This document shows positions 22,539 to 46,564 of a DNA stretch of 64,000 bases, piece after piece. Both the position numbers and the translations under genes were made by a program. Below the pieces are notes generated by a model. The model was not told the origin of the DNA and did no database searches. It worked only from the letters and a program-made list of their open reading frames with translations. Source of the DNA: Myxococcota bacterium. GTDB lineage: Bacteria > Myxococcota_A > Polyangia > Nannocystales > Nannocystaceae. How positions within the stretch are numbered: the stretch's first letter is position 1; every line of letters begins with the position of its first letter. Location: positions 1-64,000 of the forward strand of contig JBCCHT010000016.1 of NCBI GenBank assembly GCA_039028615.1, read 5' to 3'.

Positions 22539-22553
22539 GATCGTCCATATGCA

Positions 22554-22577
22554 AGCGGCCACCCGAAGGTGGCCGCT
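22554..22577 (-). terminator. Intercistronic stable hairpin (cUUCGg tetraloop)
   Basis: The mRNA reads AGCGGCCACC-UUCG-GGUGGCCGCU, a perfect 10-bp stem with no U-tract. Confidence 0.6.
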
Positions 22578-22643
22578 CGTGACGAAAGTGACCGTAGATG
22601 ATGGTGGAGCCGCCTTCCGACCCCGCCGTCATCGACGTCGCGC

Positions 22644-23063
22644 CTAGAAGTGCTCTTCGAGCAGCTTCGTGAAGCGACCGGCGTGCGACTTCTCGGCCTT
22701 GGCGAGGGTCTCGAACCAGTCGGCGACCTCTTCGAAGCCCTCTTCGCGAGCGGTCTTCGCCATGCCCGGGTACATGTCGGTGTACTCGTGGGTCTCGCCG
22801 GCGACGCCGGCCTTGAGGGCACCCTCGGTGTCCTTGATGGGCAGGCCGGTGGCGGGGTCGCCCACCTGCTTGAGGTAGTCGAGGTGGCCATGGGCGTGGC
22901 CGGTCTCGCCCTCGGCGGTGTCGCGGAAGTTGCCCGCGATCTCGGGGTAGCCTTCGACGTCGGCCATCTTGGCGAAGTAGAGGTAGCGACGATTGGCCTG
23001 CGACTCGCCGGCGAAGGCGGCCTTCAGGTTGTCGTGCGTCTTGGTTCCGTCGAGTTTGCTCAT
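22644..23063 (-). CDS. rbr: Rubrerythrin (short form lacking the rubredoxin domain)
   Basis: [45 protein letters not shown]. No C-terminal CxxC pairs. Confidence 0.93.
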
Positions 23064-23322
23064 GGATGTCTCCCTAGCTCCCGCATGGACGGGGCAGCCA
23101 CGGCGGGCGGCCCTGCGGTGTCGGCGAGAAATAACATGGGTCGTCGGGGTGGGTCACGGTGCGCTCAGGGCGGGCGTTGCGGGTGGGTGGCCCCCGTCAC
23201 CGGTCGGCCGGGGGCCTCAAACCGGCTCGCAATGGGCCGTGCGCAGAGAGCAGGCCCGAACGCCTCAGGGGCGGTACCATCGGCGCGATGCGGGTCGGCT
23301 CACGGACCTGCACCGGAGCTGC

Positions 23323-24396
23323 ATGGATTCGTCTGACCCGCGCCGTGAAAACCCCCCTCTCCCCGAGCTGGTGGCCCTGGAAGGGGCGGGGCCGGGCCCG
23401 CACACCGCGTTCGTCGTGCTGCGCTCGGTCAGTAAGGGCCAGACCCGCAACGGACAGCCGTTCTTGGATCTCAAGCTGGCCGATCGCACCCGCTCGGTCG
23501 GCGCCAAGGTGTGGAGCGATGCCGCCCGCGCGATGCAGACGGCGGAGCAGCTCGATCCGGGGGCGCACGTGAAGGTGCTGTTCGAGGTCGGTGAGTATCG
23601 CGGCGCGATGCAGCTGACCATCAAGCGGCTGCGACCGGTGCAAGAGGACGAGCCGCACTACGATCCGCAGCTGTTGATCGACGAGGGCGAGGCGCTCATC
23701 GAAGGCTTGGCGGTGGACACCCTGGTCTTCGACATCGAGACGGTGCCCGCGGTCGAGCTGCGCAAGGTGCCGTCCACGGTGGCCCAGGCGGTGACCAAGT
23801 ACGCCGACCGCCAGGACTGGGACGAAGGCAAGGTCATGAGCCTGTCGCCGTTCTTCGGCAAGGTGGTCTCGCTCGCCTTCGGCGACGGCGAGGTCGAGCC
23901 GGATCGGCAGGAGACCAACGTGTTCGTGTGTCCGCCCGACGACGTCGAGGTCACCGAGCTGCCCGACAATGTGCGGCTGGTGTCGGAGACCGAGCTGCTG
24001 CAGGCGTTCTGGGCCCTGGCCGGGCACGCCAGCGTGGTCGTGACCTACAACGGCCGCGGCTTCGACGTTCCGTTCTTGGTGGGGCGCAGCCTCATCCACG
24101 ACATCCCGGTGCGGGTCGATCTGCAATCGAAGCCCTTTGCCCTGCGACCCCACCTCGACCTTTATCAGGTGGTGGCGGGGCGCCATGGCCGAGGGCCCGC
24201 CCCGCTCGACGTGGTGTGCTGGGCCTTGGGCATGCCCAGCCCCAAGGAGGTCATGGACGGCTCGATGGTCAGCACCTTCTTTGCCAAGGGCGACCTGGCG
24301 ACCATCGCCGAGTACAACGCGGGCGACGTGCGGGCTACGACGGCCGTGTATCAGCGCGTTCGCGACGGCGTGCTGCGCTACCGCGACGACTGGTAG
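23323..24396 (+). CDS. OB-fold (YhaM-like) fused to a PolB-like DEDD 3'-5' exonuclease
   Basis: N-terminal [16 protein letters not shown]...AKVW...EYRGAMQL; C-terminal [29 protein letters not shown] lies before ATG 23323. Confidence 0.8.
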
Positions 24397-25994
24397 CGCT
24401 CTCGTCGGCGGCGGGCGAGCAGGCCGAGCAGCGCCAGGCCCCACAGCGGGCCCGCGGGCGACGGCCCTCGCATGCGGCAGTCGCAACCCGATGCACTGGC
24501 GCCGCCGTCGAGCAGGCCCGAGCCCGTGCCCGCGCTCGGCCCGGTGGTGGTCCCCGAGCTGTCGGGCGTCGCCGTCATGGCATCGTCGTTGCTGTCGACA
24601 CCCTCTTCGCTCGCGGCTCCGTCGTTGCCCCCTTCGCCGCCCGTGGAATCGGCCCCGCCCGTGCCCCCCGGGGGCTCGGCCTCCGACCACTCGTAGGCCC
24701 CGACGTCGTACGCGGGCCCCACGGGCCGCACCGTGCCGTCGCGATCGCGCGAGACCTCGTCGAGCTCGATGCCCGCGTCGACGGGCGCAGAGCCTTCGAC
24801 CAGGTGATAGTCGTGCCCCGCCGCATCGATGAACACCTCCGGCCCCACCACCAGGTTGCCCAGGCCCTCGGCTGTGATGTCCGGGATGCTGTTGCCGAGC
24901 ACCAGCAGGTTGTCGATGCGCAGGTCGACGGGCGGATCGCCACCGTCGTCCACGAACAGTTCCCCGATCTCGCCGCCGAGGGTCGTGGCCAGCACGTCGG
25001 CCCCGGTCAGACCGGTGGCGTAGCGGATGCCCGTGCCCAGATCGTAGAGCACCGCGTTGTGCACCTGGGCCAGCGCCGGGCCGCGCAGGTCGAGGCCCAC
25101 CGCCGAGCCGTAGACGGTGATGCCGACCAGCTGCGCGTCGACCTGCTCCTCGATGAACATCGCCGCCTGGTCGCCGCTCGTGCCCCCGAAACCGAACGCC
25201 ACGGTGTCTTCCACCAGGAGGGTGGGGGGTGAGCCGCGGCCGTCCAGGTCGAGGCCGACCTTGGTCTCGACGGCGCTGTCGCCGATGACGGTGCCCATGG
25301 CCACGCCGTTGGCGTCCTCGTCCAGCGGCCCGCCCCACAGCATGCAGCGGCGGAGCGACAGCTCGTCCCAGGGGGCGCGCGTCGGCGACATCTGCACCGC
25401 GTCTCCCGAGATCAGGTAGATCTCGGTGTCGCGGATCTCGACGTCGAACACGCTGTCGCCGGTCACCCCGTGTGCATCGCCCTTCGCAGCCACGCAGTGG
25501 TGGATGCTCGAGTTGGCGACGAGCACGTTCTGCACCGTGTGTAGGTCGAGGCAGTCGGCCCCCGAGCGGCGGATTTCGACGTCGAAGAGCTCGAGATTGT
25601 TCGCACCGTCCGTGTCCACGGTGTCCGACGCGCCGTAGCCTCCGTCGAAGACGAGACCCTGGATCGTGTGGAACGGGTGGTGTGCGGCCATGGCGGCCCC
25701 GTCGGCCTGCACGATGGCTTCGCCCGCGGGCTCGGCCACCACGGTGATGGGGGCCGCGCCCGTGCCATCGGTCACGGTGGCGATGGGGGCGTAGGTGCCG
25801 GGCAAGACGTGCACGACGTCGCCGGCTACCGCTTGGTCGAGAGCGTCCTGGATCTCGAGGAAGGGACTGCCTTCGCTACCGTCCCCTCCTGGGTCGGCGG
25901 CGGCGTCGACATAGAGGTCTGCAGCCGCGGCGACCGAAGGAAAGGCCACTGCCGCCGCCACGAGTGGTCCCAAGACCCCGATCCATCTCTCCAT
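24378..25994 (-). CDS. Right-handed beta-helix surface protein with MYXO-CTERM sorting signal
   Basis: Signal peptide, [41 protein letters not shown]...DVGAYE, C-terminal GCDCR...[12 protein letters not shown]. Confidence 0.85.
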
Positions 25995-31926: not shown

Positions 31927-33105
31927 ATGAGTAGCCATATGCGTTCGTCGTCATTGCTGTCGTTGCTCGGGCTGTGTGCCCTCGCCTGTGGTCCCGTGGT
32001 GAGCGGGGATACCGATGCCGCTTCGAGCAGCGGTGAGCCGTCGGAAGACTCCTCGGGTGCCGCCACGCCCGGCGCCACGACCAGCGTGACTCCGCCCGCT
32101 CCGGGGACGACCACCGGCCTCGATTCCGGCACCACCGCGGCGGCCGAAGAGACCTCCATGAGCGAGGTCGAGACCGGTGAGCCCCCGCTGTTCGACCTCG
32201 GCGTCATTCCCGACATGCCGGACGAGCCGCCGCCCGTGAAGCCCGAGTTCGACTGCTCGACGGTGCCGGACCAGTTCGTCTCGTTCCAGCACATCCCGGG
32301 CGCGCGCGGCTACCACGGCCTCGCCATCGACGAAAATGGCCTCGCCATCGGCAGTGACGGCAACTCGCTGATCCAGTCCACCTACGATGGCATGTGGAAC
32401 CTGTTCATCCCGGGCATCGGCGCGGGCCAGCAGATGGACTGGCTCGCCGATGGCGACCTGGCCTACGCCACCCAGGACGGCGCCATCACGCGGATTCGGT
32501 CCGACGCCACCACCGAGATCATCCAGCCGGGCATCAACGCCTACGGCGTCGTGCGGGGCCCCGACGACATGATCTACGTGACCGCCAACAACGGCAGCGG
32601 GATCTCGCGCATCGACCCCATGACGGGTGCCACCGAGCTCATCATGCCGGGCAACGGCATCAACATGCACTCGATGAACTTCAACGCCGAGGGCGACCGA
32701 ATCTACGTCGGCACCATCGGTGACGGCACCGCCTACTACATCGACCTCGATGCCTCCATGGACCCGGTGGGCGGCCCGCAGGTCTTGAGCGAGAACGTCG
32801 GCAACGGCAACTGCTGGCACGATGCCGTGGCCGTCGACCTGTGCGGCTACATCTACATCCCCGATTTCTGGAGCCGCAACCTGTATCGCATCGCTCCGAA
32901 CGGCGACACCGTCGTGTTCTGGGATCCCGCCGACAACGGCGACTACGCCCACGGCTTGGCCTGGGGTACGGGTGAATACGACTGGAACGAGGAAGCGCTG
33001 TACTTCCCGCAGCCGTACAACAACAACAATGTCGGCGAGGTCGTCGTCGGGGTACCGCCGCACTACTGGCCGGCCATTCCGATCAACCTGCCGCCGAGCA
33101 TGTGA
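31927..33105 (+). CDS. Lipoprotein with SMP-30/gluconolactonase-like beta-propeller
   Basis: Lipobox ALAC, S/T-rich linker, propeller blades (HGLAID, DAVAVDLCGYIYI, HGLAWG). Confidence 0.75.
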   Translation: MSSHMRSSSLLSLLGLCALACGPVVSGDTDAASSSGEPSEDSSGAATPGATTSVTPPAPGTTTGLDSGTTAAAEETSMSEVETGEPPLFDLGVIPDMPDEPPPVKPEFDCSTVPDQFVSFQHIPGARGYHGLAIDENGLAIGSDGNSLIQSTYDGMWNLFIPGIGAGQQMDWLADGDLAYATQDGAITRIRSDATTEIIQPGINAYGVVRGPDDMIYVTANNGSGISRIDPMTGATELIMPGNGINMHSMNFNAEGDRIYVGTIGDGTAYYIDLDASMDPVGGPQVLSENVGNGNCWHDAVAVDLCGYIYIPDFWSRNLYRIAPNGDTVVFWDPADNGDYAHGLAWGTGEYDWNEEALYFPQPYNNNNVGEVVVGVPPHYWPAIPINLPPSM

Positions 33106-33137
33106 GCGGCTCCGGCCCTCCTGACGAGAGCACCTTC

Positions 33138-34184
33138 ATGGATTTCGACTTCAAGCTCACCTGGGCCCTCGCGCTCAGCCTCCCCGTGCTCGCCTGTGGC
33201 ACCACGCCGGCCAGCGGCGACGACGAGTCGAGCTCGGCCGCCGACGCGACGGCGGGCACCCCCATGGCCGAGACCTCGACGCCAACATCGCCTCCGGGCA
33301 CCACGGGCAGCGCCACGCCGCCCGCCGACAGCGGTGGCACCACCAGCCTGCCCGGTGATTCGTCCGAGGGCGAAGAAGACGACCCCACCAACCCACCCGT
33401 GTTCGACCAGGGCGTCATTCCCGACGCCCCGCCCATCGACACCGAGTGCACCAAGGTCGACTTCCTGTTCATCATCGACAACAGCAGCAGCATGGCGACC
33501 TACCAGGCCAACCTGGTCGCCAACTTCCCCGCCTTCATCAATGGCATCCAGGGGTCGCTCGATACGGCCGACTCCTATCACGTCGGCGTCATCACGACCG
33601 ACGAGTACGGCTTCAACGTGGCCGGCTGCACGGATCTGTCGTCCCTCGTCGTCCAGACTGGCGGCTCGAACTCCAGCAGCAGCGTCTGCGGTCCGTTCAC
33701 CGACGGCGGCAACTTCATGACCCACAACGACGACCTCGAGGCGGCCTTCAGCTGTGCCGCCCAGGTCGGTACCTCCGGGGACGGCAACGAGCGCCCCATG
33801 CAGGCCTTGGTCGAGGCCGTCCAGGGTCTCGAGGCGGGGCCGGGCGGGTGCAACCAAGGGTTCCTGCGCGAGGATTCGTTGTTGGTCGTCGTGAACATCG
33901 GCGACGAGTCCGACAACTCGCCCGGGACGCCCATGGACTGGTACGACGCCGTCGTGGCGGCGCGCTCGGGGATTCCCGAGAACGTCGTCATACTGTCGAT
34001 CATCGATGGCCCGGGCAACCCGTGTGGGTTCGGTCAGTCCGCCGCGCGCCAGGCCTTCACCGCGCTGTGGGGCGACAACGGCTTCGAGGTGCCCATCTGC
34101 ATCGCGGACTACGAGCCCTACTTCCTCGATGCGATCGACGTCGTCGACGTCGCGTGCGAGAACTACATCCCGCCCGCGGGATGA
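33138..34184 (+). CDS. Lipoprotein with vWA-like domain
   Basis: Lipobox VLAC, KVDFLFIIDNSSSM (MIDAS DxSxS), VGVITTD, GFLREDSLLVVVNIGDE. Confidence 0.8.
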   Translation: MDFDFKLTWALALSLPVLACGTTPASGDDESSSAADATAGTPMAETSTPTSPPGTTGSATPPADSGGTTSLPGDSSEGEEDDPTNPPVFDQGVIPDAPPIDTECTKVDFLFIIDNSSSMATYQANLVANFPAFINGIQGSLDTADSYHVGVITTDEYGFNVAGCTDLSSLVVQTGGSNSSSSVCGPFTDGGNFMTHNDDLEAAFSCAAQVGTSGDGNERPMQALVEAVQGLEAGPGGCNQGFLREDSLLVVVNIGDESDNSPGTPMDWYDAVVAARSGIPENVVILSIIDGPGNPCGFGQSAARQAFTALWGDNGFEVPICIADYEPYFLDAIDVVDVACENYIPPAG

Positions 34185-35254: not shown

Positions 35255-36205
35255 CTACTCGGTCTTCTTCGGGGCCCAGCACTTGTAGCCGAGCTTGGCG
35301 GTCTTCTTCGTCTTGACCTTCTTGCCGTCGGCGAAGTCGGTCTCGTTGAGCGTGATGCCCGTGACGTTGCCGACCTCGTCGTAGCGATAGTCGAAGCGGC
35401 GGTCGACCTTGCCGTCGGCGCCGTGGTCTTCGTCGATGCGGGTCACTCGACCCTCGTCGTCGTAGCGGAGCGAGACCTTCACGGCCGGACCCTCGATGGG
35501 CTCCTTGATTGTCGCCTTGCGAACGAGGCCGTCCTTGATGTCGAGCTTGATGTCGTCCTTGGCGGCGTAGAGCGGGTATCCGGGCGCGATGCCGGTGAAG
35601 GCGGGCAGGGTGATGAGCGTGATCTCCTGCTTCTTGCTCGGCTCGCTGCGCTGGTCGGTATAGGTCGCGGTGGCGAGGTTGGCCGACTCGTCGTACGTGG
35701 GCGAGATGATCGCGTCGGTGTCCTTGTCGCAGCCTTCGTCGACGCTGACCTTGTGGGTGCGCGAGTCCTTGGTCCAGAAGCGAGCGCAGACGTCGTTGCT
35801 GCCGTCGTTGTCGCCGTCGATGCGGAGCCAGCCGCTGTCGCCGTCTTTGGCGTAGCGGAAGCGCAGCACGGGACCCTTGCTCCACCGCACGTAGCAGGGG
35901 CCGTCGTAGACGGGCGTGGGCTCGGCCTCGCCACCCGTCTCGCCCCCGGTACCGCCGCTGTCGCCGACCTCGCCCACGGTGGCGACCTCGTCGGTGTCTT
36001 CGTCGGCCCAGCCCTCGGTGTCGAAGGGGTCGGCCATGGTCGTGCCCCCCGCGGCTGCGCCGGAGCTGCCCGAAGGCGCGGGCGCCTTGGTCTCGGTCTT
36101 GGTCTCCGCCTTGGGCGGCGGGGTCTTGGCGGGCGGAGGTTGTTCCGAGCCGCCGCACGCGACGGCGGCCAGGCCGAGGAGGAGGACGGGGCGGGAGATC
36201 GTCAT
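35255..36205 (-). CDS. Lipoprotein with YD-like / DxDxDG beta repeats
   Basis: Lipobox AVAC, motifs IDGDNDG, YDESAN, YDDEGRV, YRYDEVGN. Its ATG overlaps the radical SAM stop (ATGA). Confidence 0.75.
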   Translation of the reverse strand: MTISRPVLLLGLAAVACGGSEQPPPAKTPPPKAETKTETKAPAPSGSSGAAAGGTTMADPFDTEGWADEDTDEVATVGEVGDSGGTGGETGGEAEPTPVYDGPCYVRWSKGPVLRFRYAKDGDSGWLRIDGDNDGSNDVCARFWTKDSRTHKVSVDEGCDKDTDAIISPTYDESANLATATYTDQRSEPSKKQEITLITLPAFTGIAPGYPLYAAKDDIKLDIKDGLVRKATIKEPIEGPAVKVSLRYDDEGRVTRIDEDHGADGKVDRRFDYRYDEVGNVTGITLNETDFADGKKVKTKKTAKLGYKCWAPKKTE

Positions 36206-38004
36206 GGTTCGGGGGGCGCCTGGGTGACGGGCTGCAGTTCGTCCCAGCCGTACATCGTGGCGTACGCGCGGCGTAGGCCGAAGCAGCGGGGTTGTAGCAC
36301 ACATCGGGTGCAGGGGGCGGGTTTGACGAACTCGCCGCCGTCGTAGCCGGAGGGGAGCTGGGCCAACGAGAAGAACTCGCGGAGATCGCCGGGCACGAGG
36401 CACAGGGGCAGGCCGCACATGGAGTCGAACCCACCGACCGACAGGCCGTGGCGGCGCGCGAGCGCGAGGCCCCGTTGCAGAGCGGGGATGACGTCGCGGT
36501 AGCGGGGGACGAGCCAGGGCTGACGGGGCACGAGGTCGGTGGACATGCCAACGAACGAGACGGTGATCTCGACCTGGGGCCAGCGATCGGCGACGAGCTG
36601 CACGAAGTCGGGAAACTGCTCCCGGTTGAGCTCGCAGAACACGAAGTTGAGGTGGATCCGCACCGGGGTGGCGGCGAGGGCATCGATGCCGGCCACGCTG
36701 CGGTCGAAGGTTCCGGGCGCGTCGGTGACTCGATCGCTGACCTCGGCGGTGGCTCCGTGCAGCGAGATGAACGCGAAGTCGAGGCCGGCGTCGCACAAGG
36801 TCTGGCAATACCCGGGCGCGTCGAGGCGCGTGGCGTTGGTCTGCAGCTCCACCTCGCTGGCCCCGCGGTCCTTGCCGCGACGGATGTACTCGGGCAAGCG
36901 GGGATCGAGGGTGGGCTCGCCTCCGGAGAGCACGAGCACGCCGCCCTGGTCGGCGATCTCGTCGATGGCGGCCTCGACCTGCGCGACGGCGGGGGCCGGC
37001 AGGTGGGTCGAGACGAAGCAGAAGTGACAGGCCTGGTTGCAGCGAAAGCCGATGCGGACGACGTGGGAGGGGACGGTGCTGCCGTCGGGGCGGCGCAGGA
37101 TCTCGCGGGTGACCAGCTCGCGCTCGATCTGAGCGGTCGGCGATTCGATGACGGTCAGCCGACGGCGTAGTCGTTCATTGGTGATGGGGCGGGCGACGGT
37201 CTCGGGAAGATCCTCGGGCAGGCCGGGGCAGCGGTCGCGGACGGCACACTCGGCGCAGGCGTCCGGCCGACGGTAGCCGGAGCGCTCGGCCCCTCCGCTG
37301 GTGAGCGCGTAGATCGACGCGATGTGGCTCGGTCGCTCGAACAGGCAGGGCGGCAGGTACGTGCCCGCGTCGAGCGAGATCGGCAACGCGTGGGCCCGGG
37401 CTTGGTGAACCAGCGCTTGGGTGGTGGCCACCATCGCGTCGAGCGGGGCGAGAGCGGAGGGGTCGGGGGCGCTCCGCGGCAGGCGGATCCACAAGCGCTG
37501 CAGCTCGATGCCCGCGTCGCTGAGCTGGGCGGGGAGCAGGGGCAAGCTCTCGAGGTTGTCGCGCACGACCGGGCTGCAGCCCTCGATGTCGATGCCGGCT
37601 TCTTGCAAGGCGAGCAGACCGCGCTGGGTCGCCGCGGCGCCGCCGGGGTCACGGGTGATCGCGTCGAGTCGTGGGCCCCACGCGGGCAAGTGGACGCGTG
37701 CGGCATCGAGACCGGCATCCGCGAGCGCTCGGGCCAGGCGCGAGTCGATCAGGGCGGCGTTCGTCTCGAGCACGACGCGTGAGCCCTGGGCCGTCGCTCC
37801 GCGCACGATGTTGGGAAGATCGGGGCGCCGCGTCGGCTCGCCTCCGGTCAGCAGGACCTCGGTCCCTTGCTCTCGAGCTTCGGCGAGGCGCGCCCGAATG
37901 GCACTGGAACTCGCGATCGACACGCGCTCGTGAGGGCGCCGTGCATTGCAGAACCGACACGCCTGGTTGCAGGTCTCGTTGGTGACGACCCGGGCGACCC
38001 GCAC
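36202..38004 (-). CDS. Tandem two-domain radical SAM protein
   Basis: CNQACRFC and CNQACHFC, two GGEPT motifs, each half ending in CxxCx5CxG. GTG 38004 is preceded by TATCCT. Confidence 0.9.
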   Translation of the reverse strand: MRVARVVTNETCNQACRFCNARRPHERVSIASSSAIRARLAEAREQGTEVLLTGGEPTRRPDLPNIVRGATAQGSRVVLETNAALIDSRLARALADAGLDAARVHLPAWGPRLDAITRDPGGAAATQRGLLALQEAGIDIEGCSPVVRDNLESLPLLPAQLSDAGIELQRLWIRLPRSAPDPSALAPLDAMVATTQALVHQARAHALPISLDAGTYLPPCLFERPSHIASIYALTSGGAERSGYRRPDACAECAVRDRCPGLPEDLPETVARPITNERLRRRLTVIESPTAQIERELVTREILRRPDGSTVPSHVVRIGFRCNQACHFCFVSTHLPAPAVAQVEAAIDEIADQGGVLVLSGGEPTLDPRLPEYIRRGKDRGASEVELQTNATRLDAPGYCQTLCDAGLDFAFISLHGATAEVSDRVTDAPGTFDRSVAGIDALAATPVRIHLNFVFCELNREQFPDFVQLVADRWPQVEITVSFVGMSTDLVPRQPWLVPRYRDVIPALQRGLALARRHGLSVGGFDSMCGLPLCLVPGDLREFFSLAQLPSGYDGGEFVKPAPCTRCVLQPRCFGLRRAYATMYGWDELQPVTQAPPEP

Positions 38005-38111
38005 CCGGTCAGGATACACGGTGGGACTCGGCACGGGAAAATCTCGCGACGCCGTTTGCAGGCCGTCGCACATTGCGGTTTGGGCCTCGAGCGCCGTGCT
38101 ACGGTCGATTC

Positions 38112-39086
38112 ATGCCGCGTCGATGGTGGGGTCTCGTGGGCGTGGTGGCGCTGGCCATCGGTGGCTGCGGTGATGACTCCAACGCCACGCCCGGCACGGG
38201 GGCGACGGGCACCGTGTCGACGGGCGGGTCCGTCGAAGTGACCACCACGGGGGCGCCGTCGGGGTCCAGCGGCCAGGTGGAGGGGTCGAGCACGACGAGC
38301 GGTTCGTCGTCGCGGGCCGATCCCGACGGCACGAGCAGCAGCAGCAGCAGCGGCGGCGACCCGGAGTTCTGGCAGCCGGAGCCCGGCATCTCCTGGCAGT
38401 GGCAGCTCGTCGGGACCGTCGACACCTCCATCGACGTCGCCGTGTACGACATCGACCTGTTCGACGTTCCTCAGGAAACCATCGACGCGCTGCACGCCGA
38501 TGGTCGGGTCGTCATCTGCTACTTCAGCGCGGGGAGCTACGAGCAGTGGCGCGAGGATGCCGACCAGTTCCCTGCGGCGGCCATCGGTGACCCCCTCGAC
38601 GGGTGGCCCGGTGAGGCGTGGCTCGACCACCGCGATCCGACCATTCGCACGATCATGCAGGCGCGCCTCGACCTCGCGGTGACGAAGGACTGTGATGCGG
38701 TGGAGCCGGACAACGTCGATGGGTACACGAACCCGACCGGCTTCGACCTCGGCGCGGCAGACCAGCTCGACTACAACCGCTTCCTCGCCGCCGAGGCGCA
38801 TGCGCGGGGCCTGTCGATCGGCCTGAAGAACGACGTGGACCAGGTCGCGGAGCTCGTCGACGACTTCGACTGGGCGCTCAACGAAGAGTGCGTGAGCTAC
38901 CGCGAGTGCGGGACGAAGTCTCCGTTCATCCAGCAGGGCAAGGCGGTGTTTCACGTCGAGTATGTCGACGACCCCGCCGAGGGCCCGGGGCTCGCCGAGC
39001 AGGTCTGCCCGCAGACGACGGGCCTCGGCTTTTCCACCCTGATCAAGGAGTGGGACCTGACGCCGTGGCGCCTCGCGTGCGATTGA
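38112..39086 (+). CDS. Endo-alpha-1,4-polygalactosaminidase (GH114) lipoprotein
   Basis: Lipobox IGGC, WQWQL, YDIDLFD, VICYFSAGSYEQWR, DAVEPDNVDGY, GLKND, NEEC. Confidence 0.9.
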   Translation: MPRRWWGLVGVVALAIGGCGDDSNATPGTGATGTVSTGGSVEVTTTGAPSGSSGQVEGSSTTSGSSSRADPDGTSSSSSSGGDPEFWQPEPGISWQWQLVGTVDTSIDVAVYDIDLFDVPQETIDALHADGRVVICYFSAGSYEQWREDADQFPAAAIGDPLDGWPGEAWLDHRDPTIRTIMQARLDLAVTKDCDAVEPDNVDGYTNPTGFDLGAADQLDYNRFLAAEAHARGLSIGLKNDVDQVAELVDDFDWALNEECVSYRECGTKSPFIQQGKAVFHVEYVDDPAEGPGLAEQVCPQTTGLGFSTLIKEWDLTPWRLACD

Positions 39087-39189: not shown

Positions 39190-39219
39190 ATGACGGGAAT
39201 GCGCGGGGCCGGAGAAGAG
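39190..39219 (+). promoter_or_regulatory. Putative ECF promoter type A, upstream of lipoprotein 39237
   Basis: ATGACGGG-N12-CGGAGAAGAG, matching the motif upstream of the ECF gene 40357..41646. Confidence 0.7.
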
Positions 39220-39236
39220 GGCGTAGGAGACCATCA

Positions 39237-40328
39237 ATGGCTTATTTTGCTCGACACTCTCTACTCTTGCTTTCCATGGGGGCGGCGGCATGCATCGCCC
39301 CGGTGACGATTGGCGGCAATCCCGTCGACTCGGACTCGGACTCCGACTCGGGCGTGGACACGGACGACCCCGTGCTCACCACCGGAGAGCCGCCCGCCGA
39401 GACGGAAGACGTTCCCGCCAACGCGTGCCCCGACAGCCCGGAAGACTACGCCTGCACCGTGCCTACGACCTGCAACGGCTTTTGCGGGGGCATGGGGTCG
39501 GAATACGACGCCGACGGCTGCCTGCGCTCGCGATGCAGCATCGATGACGACTGCGCCGACGGCCGTACCTGCGTCCGCTTGGGCGACTGGGGCGGTGGTG
39601 CGCCGAGCTCGACCTTCTGCGAGATGTCCGAAGGTGAGTGCGTCTGCGGCGGGACGGCCGACGGCAACGTCGACATCCGGGTCTGCATCCCGGACGAGGA
39701 GATCCCCGAGTTCGACCCCGCCGTGTGCTCGGAGCTCGGCTCGGGCGCGTCGTTTTCGTGGGTCGTGGGCGAAGTGACGGCCGGGGAATCGACGTGCACC
39801 GTGCTCGCGGTCGGCGACATGCTCGACATGGCGTGCACGGGCGCCATCGAAGGCGACGTGACCTTGGCGCTCGCGGCCGGCATCGATCTGTTCGCAGTTG
39901 ATGACGTGATCGCGCTGGACTACCGCGTGGACACCCCGGGCAAGTGGACCGACCAATGGGTCAAGCTCCAGGTCGACGGGAAGATCGGAGCGCAGGTCGT
40001 GGCCGCGCAGACCTCGAACCTCGCGCCCTCGGGCGAAAGCGCGGGCTGGCTCACCGACGGGTCCTACGAGCTGAGCCTCGCGGAGGCCACCTGCCCCTAT
40101 ACGGCTTGCGACGGCGTGATCTCGGACTTCGGGCTGCGACCCATCGCGCTGCGAGCGGGTCAGGGCGAGAACTTCGAGGACTTCTGGCCCGGAGAGGCGG
40201 GGCCGGTGCCGGGCAAGTTCGGCGGTGTGTCCCCCGACATTTCCGTGCTGGAGATGCGCGAGGGGAGCTGCTTTCTCGATCAGCCCCCGCAGTGGTTGTC
40301 CTTCGTGATCGTTCGCGAGGGCTTCTAG
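39237..40328 (+). CDS. Cys-rich lipoprotein, putative target of the adjacent fused ECF
   Basis: AGGAG RBS, lipobox AAAC, (DS)n linker, Cys-rich region. Confidence 0.75.
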   Translation: MAYFARHSLLLLSMGAAACIAPVTIGGNPVDSDSDSDSGVDTDDPVLTTGEPPAETEDVPANACPDSPEDYACTVPTTCNGFCGGMGSEYDADGCLRSRCSIDDDCADGRTCVRLGDWGGGAPSSTFCEMSEGECVCGGTADGNVDIRVCIPDEEIPEFDPAVCSELGSGASFSWVVGEVTAGESTCTVLAVGDMLDMACTGAIEGDVTLALAAGIDLFAVDDVIALDYRVDTPGKWTDQWVKLQVDGKIGAQVVAAQTSNLAPSGESAGWLTDGSYELSLAEATCPYTACDGVISDFGLRPIALRAGQGENFEDFWPGEAGPVPGKFGGVSPDISVLEMREGSCFLDQPPQWLSFVIVREGF

Positions 40329-40356
40329 CTCCTCGTGCGCGGGGTGGTCCCGGGCC

Positions 40357-41646
40357 TCACGGTGGAGGCTCGGGACAGCCGTGCGCCAAACTGGTGGCGA
40401 TCGCCGAGCGGGGAAAGGCCCGGCGGAGCGCATCGGCTTGCTCGCGCGCGGAGGCTCGGTCGCCCGATTCACACAGTGCTTTGACGGCCGTGGCCTGACC
40501 GGCGTCGGCCAGCGTGCCATGGGGGAAGCGGCGCGCGTACTCGGTGAGGATCGACAGCGCTTCCCGGGGGCGGTCGGCGGCGAGCGAGGTCCGAGCGCGT
40601 TCGATGAGCTGCAGTTCTTCCTCGACGCTCGATGGGGTCGACGCTCCGGCGAGTGTTTGCACGGGTACGGGATCCGGCAGCTCGCCCGTGTTCGGTGGTG
40701 TGGAAGGGGAGGGACGCACCGTGGGAGAAGGCCGAGCAGACGCCGTCTTGCGCACGGGCGGTCGCGGGACGGCGGTCGGTTCGACGACGGTCGGCATTGC
40801 GCTGGGCTCGGGGGCGACGACGGCCGATGGCGCGGTCGGGGCCGATGGGGCGCGGGGCTCGTCAGCGTCGGCCACATTGGCCGGAGGTGACGCAGCGCGG
40901 TCCGAGTCTCGGGACCCCGGGGCCGCGATCAACACGCCCACCAACGCGACGCTGACGGTCGCGGCGACGCCGATCGCTTGGGCCACGCTCGCACTCGGAC
41001 GCGCGGAGGCGGCGACCGGGGTCCACGGGGCTCGAAGCAGCGGCACGAGGGCCACCCAACCTCGCTGCACGCGGGTTTCCGAGGGTCGACTGGCGGCGCG
41101 TTGCTGCGCCAGCGCATGGTCGACCGCCGTCGCCGACTCGGCCAACGCCTCGAGCCGACCTCGCACCGTGCGGATGCGGGAGTACGCCGTGTTGACCGGG
41201 ATCCCGAGCTCGGCCGCGATCTCGGGCCCGCTCATGCCCAGCACCTCCGCCATCACGATCAATCGCCGCTGTGCGGGGCTCAGCTGCTCGAGCAGCTCGC
41301 GCGCCTGTCGGGCGGCATCGTGGCCGGGGTACGGATCGTCGGGCGCCGGGGCATGGTCGGCGAGGGCCGCCGCTCGCCGGGCGGTTCGGGCCGCGCTGCG
41401 TCGGTAGCGAAAGGCCACCCGCCGCGTCACCCCGTAGAGCCAACCCCGCGGCGAGACCTCCCACCGCAGCTCGTCGAGGCGCCGATGGGCGGTGATGAAC
41501 ACGTCTTGCACCACATCGTCGACGGCCGCGGGCGGAGAGCACTGCCGCGCCACGGCCCACACGAAGGGCGCATGGGTCCGGTACAGCCGCTCGAAGCGCT
41601 CGAGCGGGGGTCCAGGCGGGGGTGAAGACGTGGAGGAGCGCGACAC
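40357..41646 (-). CDS. ECF sigma factor fused in frame to a TM / Pro-rich / TPR-like anti-sigma module
   Basis: Sigma2 (DDVVQDVF, GWLYGV), sigma4 (EIAAELGIPVNTAYSRI), one TM helix, C-terminal EEELQLIERAR...RRFPHG...ALC. Confidence 0.88.
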   Translation of the reverse strand: MSRSSTSSPPPGPPLERFERLYRTHAPFVWAVARQCSPPAAVDDVVQDVFITAHRRLDELRWEVSPRGWLYGVTRRVAFRYRRSAARTARRAAALADHAPAPDDPYPGHDAARQARELLEQLSPAQRRLIVMAEVLGMSGPEIAAELGIPVNTAYSRIRTVRGRLEALAESATAVDHALAQQRAASRPSETRVQRGWVALVPLLRAPWTPVAASARPSASVAQAIGVAATVSVALVGVLIAAPGSRDSDRAASPPANVADADEPRAPSAPTAPSAVVAPEPSAMPTVVEPTAVPRPPVRKTASARPSPTVRPSPSTPPNTGELPDPVPVQTLAGASTPSSVEEELQLIERARTSLAADRPREALSILTEYARRFPHGTLADAGQATAVKALCESGDRASAREQADALRRAFPRSAIATSLAHGCPEPPP

Positions 41647-42662
41647 TAGTTCCCGCCCTCTGTTCTCCGGCCTTCGCCGTTTCTGTCACTCGGCCCCCAG
41701 ATTTTCAGCTCCAGCCCGATCGTGGCCCGCGCGGAGACCGGACCGGGGACGAAGACCGCGGCGGCTTCGCCCGGGTCCGCGACCTGGAAGCCCGACCGCA
41801 GGATCGGCGCGGCGACCCGACCCCGGGCGAAGATGGCCAGCCGAGACGCCAGCGGCACGCGGAGCGCCGCGCTGGCGGTGGGGGCGATCCACGGCCCCAG
41901 TCCTGTCCGGGCGTCGGGGGCCCGCTGCCCGTCGCCGCGCATGGCACCCGCCTCGATGCCACCGCACAGGGGGACCTCGATCCGCGGCTGCCGAAGGCGA
42001 AGGCAGGCCCGCATCGTCGCCGCTCCCAGCATCACGCGGACGTCGGCCTCGGTCTGTTGTTCGGTCCGCGGGGTGACGAACAGCCCGCCGAGCTCCAGTC
42101 GAACACGCGGCCAGGCGAGGGCCATGTCGAGGGCGACCACACCGGAAAACAGCGGCAGCGCTCCCGTCTCCAGGCCGCCCTCGGCCGATGCGAACAACTC
42201 CGGTCGGCTCGCCTCCGTGGTCTTTTGCGGAGGCGAGGGCGCGTCAGCGCTCGGCCGTCGGTCGAGGGAGACCGCGGGCTCGACGGGTGCAGGAGGGACC
42301 TCGATCTGGGGCGGGGTCACCGGGCGCTCGGGTGCTTCGGTGCGGGTGACCGTCACCGGATCGATCGCCAGCGCGACCACCAGCGCGGTTACTCGAGCCA
42401 ACACTTTGCAGTCTTCAGCTTCGATGCGCCGTCGGTCCACGGTGGTGCCGCGTCGTACGTCGAGGTCGAGCGCATACCCGGTGGCGGTCGGGTGCACCGT
42501 CGCGCGGGCGTCGAGCCCCAGGTCGTCCGCCGGACCATCGAGGTGGCCCTCGATGAGCACGCGCACTCGATCCGAGTTCGGGCACTGCGGTGGGGCGCTC
42601 CACTCGAGCCCACCTCCGGCTGCCAACAGCCCACCGAGCGCGTACGCGACAACTCCCGTCAT
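41646..42662 (-). CDS. Exported protein: Cys-pair N-domain, Pro-rich linker, beta-strand-rich (possibly barrel) C-domain
   Basis: WSAPPQCP...C..LARVTALVVALAIDP, ending GLELKI. Its stop overlaps the ECF start (TAGTG). Paralogous to 42741..43727. Confidence 0.75.
   Translation of the reverse strand: MTGVVAYALGGLLAAGGGLEWSAPPQCPNSDRVRVLIEGHLDGPADDLGLDARATVHPTATGYALDLDVRRGTTVDRRRIEAEDCKVLARVTALVVALAIDPVTVTRTEAPERPVTPPQIEVPPAPVEPAVSLDRRPSADAPSPPQKTTEASRPELFASAEGGLETGALPLFSGVVALDMALAWPRVRLELGGLFVTPRTEQQTEADVRVMLGAATMRACLRLRQPRIEVPLCGGIEAGAMRGDGQRAPDARTGLGPWIAPTASAALRVPLASRLAIFARGRVAAPILRSGFQVADPGEAAAVFVPGPVSARATIGLELKIWGPSDRNGEGRRTEGGN
41660..41689 (-). promoter_or_regulatory. Putative autoregulatory ECF promoter type A
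   Basis: GTGACAGA-N12-CGGAGAACAG, ending 13 nt before the GTG of the fused ECF. Confidence 0.7.
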
Positions 42663-42740
42663 CGGACCGAGGGATGTCCTACCATGCCTCGCTCTTCGTC
42701 TCGCCCCAGACCGCGCGCCGACTGATAGAGTCGCTCGACG

Positions 42741-43727
42741 ATGCTCCTTTCGCTTGCGCTGGCCGTATGGGCGGAGGGAGACCCCTCCGCGGTCGGCGTG
42801 TCCTGGCGGAATCCAGACGGTTGCGCCAGCGCGGAAGAGGTGCGCGCCATGACCGAGGATTTCCTCGGTCGACCCCTGTCGGAGGCGGGCAACCGCGTGA
42901 CGCTCGACGCCGAGGTGACCCGCGATGGCGAAGGCTGGGCGCTGGACATGGTGGTGCGCACCGATTCGGGGGAGGATCGCTTCTCCGCGCATGCGTCCTC
43001 GTGCGATCCGTTGGTCGAGGCGGCGGCGCTCAAGCTGGCGCTGACCATCGACACCATGGCCGTCGTCGACGAGGTCGAAGTGCCGGGACGCGGCGAGCCG
43101 GAGCCGGAGCCCGTCGTGCGGTCGGAGCCCGAGCCGGCCGAACAACGCCCGACCGACGTCGTCGAGCCTGCGCCCGTACCTTCCGTCGAACCGCCGTCGC
43201 CTTCCGATCCTCCGGCCGAGTGGGACGTCGTGCTGGGCATTGCCGGGCTCGCCGGCTACGGCATCGTGCAAGGCTGGGGCGGAGGTCCCGAGTGGTCGGT
43301 GGGATTCGGTCGGGGCTGGTGGAGGATCGACCCGTATCTCGGCTACTCGTGGTCGCAGTCCGCCGCGGTGGGCTCCGACGGGGCGGGCGTCGCCCTGCAG
43401 ATGGGCGCGGCCGGGGTTCGTACGTGCGGGCGCCCGGCGGTGGGCCGCGTTGGTTTTCCCATCTGTGTGCTCGCCGAGGCCGGCGTGACCTGGGCTCGCG
43501 GCTATGGGCTGCCCGCCGTCGCGACCGCGGCCCGGCCTCGAGTCGTGGCCGGTGTCGCCCCCGGAGTTCGCGTCGCGCTGAGCCAGCGGATCGCGATGGT
43601 GTTCCGAACCGATGTGCTGCTCAGCGTGCTGCGCCCGCGCTTCGTCGTCGAAGGGCAGGGGGACATCTACACCGCCCCGATCTTCGCGTTTCGCGCGGGC
43701 TTGGGCCTGGAAATCACGCTGAAGTGA
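42741..43727 (+). CDS. Exported protein: Cys-pair N-domain, Pro-rich linker, beta-strand-rich (possibly barrel) C-domain
   Basis: WRNPDGC...CDPLVEAAALKLALTID, ending GLGLEITLK. Paralogous to 41646..42662. Confidence 0.75.
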   Translation: MLLSLALAVWAEGDPSAVGVSWRNPDGCASAEEVRAMTEDFLGRPLSEAGNRVTLDAEVTRDGEGWALDMVVRTDSGEDRFSAHASSCDPLVEAAALKLALTIDTMAVVDEVEVPGRGEPEPEPVVRSEPEPAEQRPTDVVEPAPVPSVEPPSPSDPPAEWDVVLGIAGLAGYGIVQGWGGGPEWSVGFGRGWWRIDPYLGYSWSQSAAVGSDGAGVALQMGAAGVRTCGRPAVGRVGFPICVLAEAGVTWARGYGLPAVATAARPRVVAGVAPGVRVALSQRIAMVFRTDVLLSVLRPRFVVEGQGDIYTAPIFAFRAGLGLEITLK

Positions 43728-43753
43728 CGGATTCATCCTCGCCTGCACATGAG
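43724..43753 (+). promoter_or_regulatory. Putative autoregulatory ECF promoter type B
   Basis: GTGACGGA-N12-TGCACATGAG, ending 5 nt before the GTG of the ECF gene. Confidence 0.8.
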
Positions 43754-43758
43754 CTGGT

Positions 43759-44343
43759 GTGTCGGCATTCACTGCCGTCGGCGACGAGACCGCGATGACG
43801 GTCTCCGAGCCGGATACACAGCGTTTCGAGCGTCTCTTCGCGCAGACGCACCGGTTCGTCTGGCGCTCGCTTCGGTACCTGGGCGTGCCCGCGGCGGAGG
43901 TCGAAGACGCGGCCCAGGAAGTGTTCATGATCGCCTATCGCCGACTGCCGGAGTACGAAGAGCGGGGCCTCGTTCAGGGGTGGCTCTACGGCATCGCGCG
44001 GGGGGTGGCGCGGAACCGAGGCCGCGCGCGGCAGCGTCGACTTCGACGTCATGCGTCGCTGGCCACCGAGTCGCAAGCGCAGCCGCAGGTCGAGACGGGG
44101 GTGTCGGAGGAGAGTGTCGACCGGGCCCGCGCGAGTCGGCTGATCCAGCAGTTTCTCGACGGCCTCAAGCCCAAGCTACGCGACGTGTTCGTGCTGGTGG
44201 AGCTCGAGCAGACCCGTGCCCCCGAGGTCGCCCAGCAGCTCGGGATCCCGCTCAATACGGTCTATTCTCGGCTTCGACTCGCGCGGGGCCACTTCCAGCG
44301 CTTCGTCGATGCCCACGGGGGCAGCGAGGAGTCCTCTTCATGA
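43759..44343 (+). CDS. ECF RNA polymerase sigma factor
   Basis: FVWRSLRYLGV, EDAAQEVF, GWLYGIAR, EVAQQLGIPLNTVYSRLRLAR. Confidence 0.93.
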   Translation: MSAFTAVGDETAMTVSEPDTQRFERLFAQTHRFVWRSLRYLGVPAAEVEDAAQEVFMIAYRRLPEYEERGLVQGWLYGIARGVARNRGRARQRRLRRHASLATESQAQPQVETGVSEESVDRARASRLIQQFLDGLKPKLRDVFVLVELEQTRAPEVAQQLGIPLNTVYSRLRLARGHFQRFVDAHGGSEESSS

Positions 44344-45083
44344 ACGACGACGCTCGGGCCTTGTTGGAGCAGTACCGCCGCGACTGTGAGCCGTCGTCGG
44401 AGGCCACGGCGAGCTTGCACCGACGGGTGTCGGAGGCCGTCGCTGCTCCGAGCACTGCGACGACGGCTGCGGGGACCAGCTCGTCGACGCTGGGCATCCT
44501 GATCGGCGGCGGCGTGCTGTTGTTGGTGTTGGGCGGCCTGTGGTTGGGGACCCGAGCAGAGCCGGACTCGACGCGGTCGGCTACACCGTCCGCGGCGGCG
44601 ATCGTCGATGCCCCGGCGCCCGAGCCCGCCGCCGAGCCGCCCGTGGTCGTGCCCTCCGCTGCCGAGGTCGCGGTGCCGCCCGTCCCGAGTCCTGCGCCCG
44701 AGTCCGAGCCGCCCGAGTCTGAGTCCGAGTCCGAAGCGACGCGTCCGACCGCGACTGCGCGCTCGCCTCGACGCACGCGTCGCCCGGCCCCTGCGCCACC
44801 GCCGTCCGCCGACACCCTGGCGGAGGAGACGCTGTTGCTCCGTCGCGCCCAGCAGGCGCTGAGCAAGGGCGATCCACGGCAGAGCCTGCAGGTGCTGGCG
44901 GAGCACGAACGACGCTTCCCTCGCGGTCTGTTGGTCAAGGAGCGGGGCTCGATGAGGGTCATCGCCTTGTGCCGCGCGGACGATCCGCGGGCAAAGACCG
45001 AGCTGACGAAGTACTTGCGACGCCATCCGGCCACGCCCTACCGCGACCGCCTGGAGCATGCGTGCGGGGAGCAAGAGGAGTGA
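44340..45083 (+). CDS. Putative single-pass anti-sigma factor with periplasmic TPR-like domain
   Basis: ATGA overlap with the ECF gene, one TM helix, Pro-rich linker, AEETLLLRRAQQAL...RRFPRG...ALC. Confidence 0.85.
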   Translation: MNDDARALLEQYRRDCEPSSEATASLHRRVSEAVAAPSTATTAAGTSSSTLGILIGGGVLLLVLGGLWLGTRAEPDSTRSATPSAAAIVDAPAPEPAAEPPVVVPSAAEVAVPPVPSPAPESEPPESESESEATRPTATARSPRRTRRPAPAPPPSADTLAEETLLLRRAQQALSKGDPRQSLQVLAEHERRFPRGLLVKERGSMRVIALCRADDPRAKTELTKYLRRHPATPYRDRLEHACGEQEE

Positions 45084-45109
45084 CGGAATTCCGGGCGCGT
45101 GCACATGAG
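45080..45109 (+). promoter_or_regulatory. Putative ECF promoter type B, upstream of lipoprotein 45116
   Basis: GTGACGGA-N12-TGCACATGAG: both boxes and the spacing are identical to 43724-43753. Confidence 0.8.
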
Positions 45110-45115
45110 GCAGCG

Positions 45116-46564
45116 ATGTGTCGCCGGGTCCCCACGATCGCCGTCCTATTGCTCTGCGCTGCGGGGTGCACGACCTCGGGGGGGTCGGTGGGCTCCATCG
45201 AGACGCTGACCAGCACCGCGGCCGAGGATGGCCCGGGCAGCGGGGAGACCGCGGGGGGCGGCAGTGGGCCGGGCGCGACCTCGGTGGCCGAGGAATCGTC
45301 GGCCTCCGCGTCGTCGTCCGCGACTTCGGCGACCGGGCCGAGCCTCGACGACACCAGCGGGACCACGGTCGGCAGCAACGACGACGGTCCCATCTTCGAC
45401 GTGGGCACCATTCCCGACGGGGGCAACACCTGCGGCGACGACTCGAGCGTGTCGTTCTCCACCATCTGGATCGCCTCGCAGTCGACGGGCACGGTGTATC
45501 GGGTCGATACCTTCACGGGGACGATCGAGGGGCGCTACTACACCGAGCCGAGCATGGGGCGGGGGTCGCCCTCGCGGACCTCGGTGAACCTTCAGGGGGA
45601 CGTCGCGGTGAGCAACCGGGCATCGGCGGGGGTCACCAAGATCGCGGGCTCGCTCGATCGCTGCGTCGATCTCGATGGCAACGGGACCATCGAGACCTCC
45701 ACGGGGCCCGAGGACGTGCTGCCCTGGGGTGAAGACGAGTGTGTGCTGTGGCACCGCGACTTCCCGGATGCCATCGCCAACAAGGGCGTTCGGCCCACGC
45801 AATGGGAGGCCGGGGTCGCGCCAGGCTTCCCCTGCGGAGACCCGAACCCTCGGCTGTGGGTGGGGTACCTCGCCACGGGAGAGGTGGCGAGGTTCGTGCG
45901 GCTCGATGGTAGCGACGGCGCCATCCTCGACACGGCCGAGGTCTCCGGGGTGTTCACCGACCACCCTCATCATCGACCCTACGGAGGGGTGGTCGATGCC
46001 GAGGGCGACCTGTGGGCGATCGGTCACGGCTCGGGGGACACGGGGCCGTTGCTGCACATCGACGCCGACACGCTGGAGGTCACGAACTACGGCAACCCCA
46101 TCGGCAGCTTCTATGGCCTGACGATCGATGCCGATGGCAACCCTTGGGCGTGCTCGCGGAACTTGGCGGCGACCCAAGCCGCGGTGTTTCGTTTCGACGC
46201 GGTGACCGAGACCTTCTCCGAGGTGCTGGTCACGGGCGGGGCCTCGCTGCGAGGCTGCGCCGCCGACGAAGCGGGGCGCCTGTGGGCCGCGGCGAACAAC
46301 CCCTGCGGGTTGGTCGAGATCGACATGGCCACGCAAACGCAGGTCGGCCCGCAGATCGAGCTTCCCGGCTGTGTGACTCCGGTCGGGGTGAGCATCGACG
46401 TCGAAGGCTATGTCTGGGTGGTGGATTCGGGGGGGGACCAGGCCTACAAAGTGGACCCGGTGACGCACAACGTGGAGATCCTCGTGGAGAACCTGATCAC
46501 GCCCTATACCTACTCGGACATGACGGGGGCCGGCCTGGGGCTGGTGTCTGGGCCGCAGGGCTGA
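45116..46564 (+). CDS. Lipoprotein with beta-propeller (Vgb/NHL-like) domain
   Basis: Lipobox AAGC, IWIAS, SPSRTSV, YTYSDMTG. Paralogous to 1933..3282. Confidence 0.8.
   Translation: MCRRVPTIAVLLLCAAGCTTSGGSVGSIETLTSTAAEDGPGSGETAGGGSGPGATSVAEESSASASSSATSATGPSLDDTSGTTVGSNDDGPIFDVGTIPDGGNTCGDDSSVSFSTIWIASQSTGTVYRVDTFTGTIEGRYYTEPSMGRGSPSRTSVNLQGDVAVSNRASAGVTKIAGSLDRCVDLDGNGTIETSTGPEDVLPWGEDECVLWHRDFPDAIANKGVRPTQWEAGVAPGFPCGDPNPRLWVGYLATGEVARFVRLDGSDGAILDTAEVSGVFTDHPHHRPYGGVVDAEGDLWAIGHGSGDTGPLLHIDADTLEVTNYGNPIGSFYGLTIDADGNPWACSRNLAATQAAVFRFDAVTETFSEVLVTGGASLRGCAADEAGRLWAAANNPCGLVEIDMATQTQVGPQIELPGCVTPVGVSIDVEGYVWVVDSGGDQAYKVDPVTHNVEILVENLITPYTYSDMTGAGLGLVSGPQG

Follow-up and report, generated by a model that had tools for sequence, protein, structure and literature searches.

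Extracytoplasmic function sigma factor cassettes with predicted outer-membrane barrels and cassette-specific promoter-like motifs in a Myxococcota genome

The 64,000-nucleotide stretch analysed here (positions 1 to 64,000 of contig JBCCHT010000016.1, a Myxococcota bacterium, assembly GCA_039028615.1; hereafter the window) carries at 39,190 to 46,564 two cassettes, each of which combines an exported protein with a predicted barrel, an extracytoplasmic function (ECF) sigma factor, a transmembrane (TM) helix leading to a tetratricopeptide repeat (TPR) domain, and a lipoprotein. Comparison with related loci revealed that sigma factors of this family match, through individual residues, a promoter-like motif of their own that recurs on both sides of the sigma and anti-sigma genes. 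Judged from the sequences, this promoter code is strongly supported and we consider it very probable. The cassettes are presented as a variant of trans-envelope signalling through ECF sigma factors, in which the promoter code among paralogs is unusually clean and directly testable.

The right cassette has the order barrel, sigma factor, TM-linker-TPR protein and propeller lipoprotein. In the left cassette the barrel is followed by a single open reading frame (ORF) in which the sigma factor and the TPR part are fused, and the lipoprotein is convergent, inverted relative to the usual family layout (Table 1). PF04542 (sigma2) and PF08281 (sigma4) score above cut-off in both sigma factors, TIGR02937 likewise exceeds its cut-off, and the sigma-factor parts of both proteins consist of sigma2 and sigma4 only, as defines ECF sigma factors. 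The two exported proteins are paralogs (28% identity, E 5e-21). The preliminary description of this DNA had assigned to both cassettes an exported protein, an ECF sigma factor and a separate TM and TPR anti-sigma factor, which holds for the right cassette; the left one has no separate anti-sigma gene. A recent mirror duplication as the origin of the pair was rejected. The sigma factors share no more than 37% identity and fall on separate branches of a quick tree (a careful tree search was unfinished), so that the locus appears as a juxtaposition of two family members. The assignment of the convergent Cys-rich lipoprotein to the left cassette was confirmed, because an ortholog (33% identity over 285 residues) lies directly behind the orthologous fused sigma factor in locus L070, with the same −10 box. 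The left lipoprotein itself gave no match in Pfam, NCBIfam or the Atlas.

The four two-box motifs lie where the preliminary description had placed them. Across the genome (12,267,695 bases, 68% GC) there are two copies of each strict pattern, both in this locus. No sigma-70 consensus promoter was found between 39000 and 46800. The left sigma-side site sits within the 3' end of the left barrel gene, and in the right cassette the TGA of the −35 box also terminates the preceding reading frame, that of the barrel at 43725-43727 and that of the anti-sigma factor at 45081-45083. An explanation of TGAC by stop-codon overlap alone was rejected: the barrel stop falls on motif positions 2-4 in only 35 of the 86 cassettes with a promoter call, and the second box was recovered with a TGAC-only seed.

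Pairing of the motifs was found throughout the family. For the 28 cassettes of the same genome, alignment of the region upstream of sigma with that downstream of the anti-sigma gene scored 15.9 for own pairs against 11.3 for mixed pairs; the own partner ranked first in 10 of 28 cases (0 of 100,000 permutations). Cassettes from other genomes behaved similarly in a matched versus mismatched motif test, with 16.6 against 11.3, 18 of 88 ranking first and 46 of 88 among the top five (0 of 20,000 permutations). Motif discovery on the two sides separately, seeded with TGAC only, returned the same two-box motif, roughly GTGACGGAT-N11-CGG(A/G/C)(C/A/G)A. Where both sides were called (76 of 116 cassettes), agreement within a cassette exceeded that of mixed pairs at the −10 box (6.4 versus 4.3 of 10) as well as at the −35 box (6.5 versus 5.2 of 9). 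A cognate promoter before the barrel genes was rejected: 4 of 106 scored at least 7, none of them matching the −10 box of its own cassette. A large regulon of the right sigma factor was rejected as well, with two sites genome-wide at one mismatch. Elsewhere in the genome, at C12:199290, GTGACGGAT-N11-GTGCACATC precedes a stand-alone lipoprotein that lacks the N-terminal tag described below, a possible distant target of the right sigma factor or of a relative.

A confident sigma-side call was available for 86 of the 116 cassettes (about 61 after weighting), and covariation was computed on this set. All top covarying sigma columns for −35 positions 2-7 lie in sigma4 and all those for motif positions 22-27 in sigma2.4. 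Cassette-specific −10 boxes that covary with sigma2 had been predicted beforehand and are borne out here across genomes, including a blind test. The TGAC −35 box, by contrast, had been proposed to be shared; it has variants, which agree between the two sites of a cassette and covary with sigma4.2. In the right sigma factor, residue 86 aligns with Asn84 of RpoE, and residue 170 presumably corresponds to RpoE Ser172, on the basis of an alignment offset. For RpoE, experiments showed that Asn84 sets −13/−12 and that Ser172 sets −34 (PMC7776599). In the family, Asn at position 86 goes with AC at −13/−12 (26/27), Asp with CC (11/11) and His with G as the first base (14/15); Arg (n=18) goes mostly with AG, A being first in 11 and G second in 13 cases. 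At residue 170, Ser accompanies TGAC (63/67) and Ala TCAC (10/11). The base at −13 was predicted correctly from sequences below 50% identity in 65 of 86 left-out cases, compared to a baseline of 30, and the sigma4 residue was of no help (32).

For the blind test, −13/−12 were masked in those 61 sigma factors of a second set for which a TPR partner was present, the call reached at least 7 and identity to the training set stayed below 70%. The prediction was correct for Asp (CC) in 20/23, for Asn (AC) in 6/8 and for Arg (AG) in 7/10 cases (together 33/41), and for His (first base G) in 5/5; the remaining 15 carry residues without a clear prior rule. Some members of this set are close orthologs from Nannocystis, and because a sigma4 pattern was used to select it, the set is no test of the −35 box. 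The promoters of the window fit the rule, Asn86 on the right going with TGC-AC-ATG and Arg80 on the left with CGG-AG-AA. Loci L234 and L261 have paired GGTGTC −10 boxes together with Asn at position 86, and are either exceptions to the rule or cases of a shifted register.

With motif position 24 set as −13, position 37 becomes +1. This register was checked independently: in-frame start codons stand at the predicted +1 in 25/86 and 14/63 sigma genes, compared to about 2 at other positions, and those of the downstream genes peak at motif positions 36-37. The ATG of the right lipoprotein at 45116 coincides exactly with it. Many transcripts are therefore predicted to be leaderless.

Several observations count against reading the motifs as private addresses. 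The related genomes are non-independent samples. A confident sigma-side call is absent in 30 of 116 cassettes, and under a stricter score only 48 of 116 have calls on both sides; in 40 of these, at least 5 of the 6 core bases agree. Spacer agreement is in slight excess (4.2 versus 3.7 of 11, reached by chance in 22 of 20,000 trials), and local duplication therefore contributes a little. Further, a barrel-less fused paralog on contig C8 has a near-identical sigma2 and carries the GGAGAA −10 box of the left cassette. The C8 locus (21585-24962, minus strand) comprises a fused sigma factor and two tandem tagged lipoproteins, all three genes lying behind GGAGAA-type sites, three in number and with a 13-base spacer. 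Owing to the near-identical sigma2 and these sites, cross-talk with the left cassette is likely; the C8 paralog may also borrow the left barrel. The spacer similarity and the −10 box common to the left and C8 cassettes, together with an ACA core (−13..−11) in 8 of 20 calls of this genome and the stop codons that overlap TGA, would fit motifs left over from local duplication and shaped by stop codons, or else real promoters that many paralogs recognise with little discrimination, so that the cassettes would lack insulation. We regard this as very improbable, since the boxes are far more conserved than the spacers and covary with DNA-contacting residues in the correct domain and register, and since the code predicts unseen loci and start codons fall on the predicted +1. 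All 20 confident promoter calls of the genome differ in their combination of −35 and −10 boxes. As far as can be judged from the motifs, such matched addresses would let many probable surface sensors run with little cross-talk. Of the insulation through different −10 boxes that had been proposed, the cassette-specific boxes were thus found; in view of the C8 paralog it is not absolute.

A structure model of the right barrel protein (pLDDT 90.8) predicts an alpha/beta domain, a flexible linker and a barrel of 8 strands and about 170 residues. This fold matches OmpA, OmpX, NspA and OmpW (NspA: Z 18.3, rmsd 2.5 over 148 residues), so that the modelling and fold searches agree with the earlier proposal of an outer-membrane-type barrel. 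Alignments of the barrel gave no informative Pfam family (low-complexity or single weak matches only) and no solved sequence, and Atlas matches were confined to unnamed Myxococcota clusters; a protein homology search returned the query barrel alone, which reflects its limited sensitivity, since the genome searches found many homologs. The N-terminal domain, in which the Cys pair of the right protein is invariant, resembles HPF/RaiA (Z 8.9), TolB-N (8.0) and LptE-type domains (7.4), a common fold type. As these matches are middling and tied, no function was drawn from them. On the anti-sigma side, some 60 conserved cytoplasmic residues lead up to the TM helix, a TM-like segment was detected in 72/76 split and 37/40 fused proteins, and Pro-rich linkers of about 95 residues lead to a TPR domain whose profile matches BamD (E 3.6e-5).

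A lipoprotein-like gene lies behind 84 of the 116 cassettes, and the proteins fall into 49 sequence groups. In 65 of the 84, the set on which the tag was defined, the lipobox Cys begins a C-x3-7-[LVI]-G tag. An additional 82 cassettes bore this out, 35 of their 47 lipoproteins having the tag, compared to a genome background of 59/842 with the same detector. Among the propeller paralogs with a called lipobox Cys only 2 of 16 carry the tag, one of them the cassette member. A second short motif (about PxFDxGxxPD) ends the low-complexity linker of several unrelated lipoproteins, in the window those at 45116-46564, 31927-33105 and 33102-34184; of the 842 lipoproteins in the genome, 23 have a motif of this kind, against 6 for a control window.

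From co-occurrence, topology and analogy, a relay can be proposed in which the predicted outer-membrane barrel, probably made from a separate upstream promoter, would hold the TPR end of the likely anti-sigma factor across the periplasm. The lipoprotein would dock on this barrel-TPR assembly through its tag and act as an exchangeable receptor. A signal would then free the sigma factor by proteolysis, a step that the fused form, with its sigma factor anchored to a TM helix, would in all likelihood need; M50 site-2 proteases are encoded in the genome. Transcription by the sigma factor is probably limited to its own operon and lipoprotein gene, starting from the matched promoter-like address, so that more sigma factor, inhibitor and lipoprotein would be made. 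For this full scheme, with a docked, exchangeable receptor and positive feedback, we see the chances as evenly balanced, and we prefer it to the alternatives considered below. Extended to the whole family, it would amount to a modular receptor platform, in which unrelated lipoprotein sensors are plugged through an eight-residue tag into a standard barrel-TPR-sigma relay and private promoters arise by changes of two or three sigma residues. This is possible, with the balance tilted somewhat against it; if true, dozens of parallel surface-sensing channels per cell would operate without TonB-dependent receptors, some of them with one-piece membrane-tethered sigma factors.

The lipoprotein could instead be a pure output, the tag being a sorting label and the barrel itself sensing the state of the outer membrane or a ligand and signalling to the TPR domain. 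Such a split relay has a parallel in Dma1, which has an 8-stranded barrel, controls an ECF sigma factor and up-regulates NigD lipoproteins, one of them encoded by the adjacent gene (PMC10927553). Some cassettes without a lipoprotein or motif directly downstream would be compatible with it. A general sorting label should, however, be common, yet the tag is confined to the 59 of 842 genome lipoproteins and missing in 14 of the 15 propeller paralogs outside the cassette, which makes this explanation rather doubtful.

BamD is a peptide-binding TPR protein, and the match of the TPR profile to it suggests a further alternative, a feedback gauge of lipoprotein delivery. The TPR domain would read the tag directly in the periplasm, without contact to the barrel, which would serve as anchor or surface-display partner. 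Similarity of the tag tracks TPR identity slightly best (rho 0.15 versus 0.11-0.12), and the barrel N-terminal domain resembles LptE/TolB-N/PqiC-type envelope domains at a middling Z of 7-8. The differences between the correlations are small, though, 8-stranded barrels of the OmpA type are too narrow to export a folded domain, and the long Pro linkers in the anti-sigma factor and the barrel are as expected of parts meeting in mid-periplasm. This alternative seems unlikely.

The docked-receptor relay in turn meets difficulties of its own. Covariation between the periplasmic domain of the barrel and the TPR domain in 180 cassettes reached a maximum z of 6.8, compared to 6.0 when scrambled and 10.9 for the control pair TPR-sigma; as it is weaker than in this non-touching pair, it reflects ancestry. 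The profile of the split anti-sigma N-terminus matches 8 of 40 fused proteins, not including the left one of the window. The right barrel, with ...EITLK at its C-terminus, lacks the aromatic last residue typical of outer-membrane proteins. Being short, the tag carries little information, and its similarity follows partner identity only weakly when the cargo domains are unrelated (rho 0.10-0.15).

The window locus provides two of 28 barrel-sigma-TPR cassettes in its genome. Iterated profiles gave 238 ECF-like ORFs there. In 42 of them a TPR protein follows or a barrel precedes the sigma factor, and 28 have both neighbours; 12 of the 28 have the fused sigma-TPR form. The barrel is present in 16 of 18 genomes of the same family and, at E <1e-20 with 11 candidates scored per genome, in at least 18 of 200 other genomes of the phylum, where matches with E above about 1e-8 were mostly linker matches and left uncounted. 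Among 120 listed non-self barrel loci from same-family genomes, 92 have a barrel-sigma cassette, which in 89 includes a TPR domain and in 29 has the fused form. The second set, 40 loci from the phylum-wide search and 80 further ones, yielded 120 sigma factors, 107 with TPR and 90 with TPR and barrel. Named relatives, all Myxococcota, are Nannocystis species, Minicystis rosea, and Polyangiaceae, Sandaracinaceae, Kofleriaceae and Archangium metagenome-assembled genomes; named fused homologs come mostly from Nannocystis/Nannocystaceae.

Variants were also seen. No sigma gene lies adjacent at 28 of the first 120 barrel loci, in some since the contig ended, and three barrel genes of the same genome have none within 3.5 kb (C5:294119-295294, C6:81753-82970, C68:19024-20214). 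Three loci of this genome with more divergent sigma factors show the order sigma, TPR anti-sigma, barrel, the barrel being downstream (C57:42178-44531, C31:86024-88569, C15:66876-69437). A strongly conserved long-branch sigma clade (L021, L043, L053, L072, L083, L120 and C50:10298 of the same genome) has a TGAAGG −35 box, a start codon right after the −10 box and one conserved lipoprotein family, unlike the fast-changing rest.

In the literature searched, which left out most subscription papers, no description of the barrel-sigma-TPR cassette was found. The family has probably been catalogued as ECF220/ECF210, without mechanism or promoter, as its likeness to the published descriptions suggests. 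In the group descriptions, ECF220 is myxobacterial and has a C-terminal extension with about one TM helix; one member has a TPR, and the neighbours are an extracytoplasmic protein (position −1) and a protein with an N-terminal anchor (position +1). ECF210 is given for Sorangium, Sandaracinus and Chondromyces, and the promoters of both groups are termed 'not conserved' (PMC7826278, Supplementary Text S2). A table of ECFs with regulatory extensions places ECF220 under 'Others' (PMC8999054). The left protein has such an extension with one TM helix and TPR, as do the fused proteins in general with respect to the TM-like segment, and the −1/+1 neighbours recur across the family as barrel and lipoprotein, with the left lipoprotein of the window inverted. 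In contrast, those descriptions assign two docking TM helices to the −1 protein and record no promoter, whereas here a barrel was modelled and each paralog has its own motif; they also list ECF220 for Polyangiaceae, a family other than that of most named fused forms.

The preliminary description had compared the locus to Fec-like signalling without a TonB-dependent receptor. No such receptor is found in the cassette; the closest studied system is Dma1/Das1 (ECF21) of Bacteroides thetaiotaomicron, not Fec. In the latter, FecI induces fecA, and the likeness to FecA-FecR-FecI lies in an outer-membrane barrel, an inner-membrane anti-sigma factor, an ECF sigma factor and the occurrence of fused forms. 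The window family differs by its small barrel without cognate promoter and by lacking the TonB-dependent receptor and a FecR domain; Pfam gave no FecR match at E 0.1, the periplasmic end of the anti-sigma factor being the BamD-like TPR domain. IutY, a fused sigma/anti-sigma factor of Fec-type signalling, is described as freed by proteolysis (PMC8999054).

With Dma/ECF21 the family shares an ECF sigma factor, a TM anti-sigma factor with a long disordered periplasmic linker, a (here modelled) eight-stranded barrel, lipoprotein targets and the lack of a TonB-dependent receptor in the cassette. Dma1 joins anti-sigma factor and barrel in one polypeptide and its system induces NigD lipoproteins (PMC10927553), and split as well as fused forms are listed for ECF21 (PMC7826278, Supplementary Text S2). 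Here, anti-sigma factor and barrel are always separate ORFs with extra end domains (BamD-like TPR; alpha/beta Cys pair), and a single polypeptide spanning both membranes was not found: no ORF of the genome is matched by both the barrel N-domain and TPR profiles. Further differences are the barrel gene, usually upstream and outside the promoter of the sigma factor, the about 28 paralogs with individual promoter addresses in one genome, the unrelated but tagged lipoproteins, and the occurrence in Myxococcota rather than Bacteroidota. The sigma-I/RsgI sets of cellulolytic clostridia likewise comprise several homologous alternative sigma factors kept apart by promoter differences, but are described as Gram-positive and not ECF, with the sensor domain on the anti-sigma factor and about five studied paralogs instead of dozens (PMC6056542). 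The general ECF protein-DNA code of Todor et al. uses the same positions, the Asn84 equivalent with −13/−12 and the Ser172 equivalent with −34; it was drawn across families, whereas the present family uses it within one genome to diversify a single set of paralogs (PMC7776599).

Individual promoter addresses would explain why the promoters of these myxobacterial ECF groups are listed as non-conserved, and the blind-validated residue-to-base rule turns the groups into a testable sigma-by-promoter matrix. They offer a natural set of near-orthogonal sigma/promoter pairs, often probably leaderless, and an instance of insulation between paralogs in one genome. The proposed relay would further point to TonB-independent trans-envelope signalling outside Bacteroidota, carried by cultured Nannocystis strains.

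Table 1. Coordinates of the features of the two cassettes in the window (aa, amino acids; RpoE numbering where stated).
Feature	Position	Strand	Remarks
Left promoter-like site before lipoprotein	39190..39219	+	ATGACGGG-N12-CGGAGAAGAG; predicted +1 = 39226
Left-cassette Cys-rich lipoprotein	39237..40328	+	363 aa, 19 Cys; lipobox Cys19, tag CIAPVTIG
Left lipoprotein N-terminal tag C-x3-7-[LVI]-G	39291..39314	+	seen in sequence; enriched across family
Left ECF sigma factor fused to TM helix, Pro-rich linker and BamD-like TPR domain	40357..41646	-	429 aa; Arg80 = equivalent of RpoE Asn84
Left promoter-like site before fused sigma factor	41660..41689	-	GTGACAGA-N12-CGGAGAACAG; predicted +1 = 41653
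Left barrel protein	41646..42662	-	338 aa; Cys-pair alpha/beta domain, Pro linker, predicted 8-stranded barrel; fold taken from paralog
Right barrel protein	42741..43727	+	328 aa; N-terminal hydrophobic leader, alpha/beta domain, Pro linker, predicted 8-stranded OmpA/OmpW/NspA-type barrel
Right promoter-like site before sigma gene	43724..43753	+	GTGACGGA-N12-TGCACATGAG; predicted +1 = 43760
Right ECF sigma factor	43759..44343	+	194 aa from GTG 43759; alternative start ATG 43795; Asn86 aligns with RpoE Asn84
Right predicted anti-sigma factor	44340..45083	+	247 aa; short cytoplasmic helical region, TM helix, Pro-rich linker, BamD-like TPR domain
Right promoter-like site before lipoprotein	45080..45109	+	GTGACGGA-N12-TGCACATGAG; predicted +1 = A of ATG 45116 (leaderless)
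Right beta-propeller lipoprotein	45116..46564	+	482 aa; lipobox Cys18; one of 22 genomic paralogs
Right lipoprotein N-terminal tag CTTSGGSVG	45167..45193	+	seen in sequence

Next to the cassettes, a GH114 glycoside hydrolase lipoprotein (38112-39086) lies directly upstream of the promoter-like site of the left lipoprotein, and a 623-residue protein with two radical SAM domains is encoded at 36202-38073 (minus strand).

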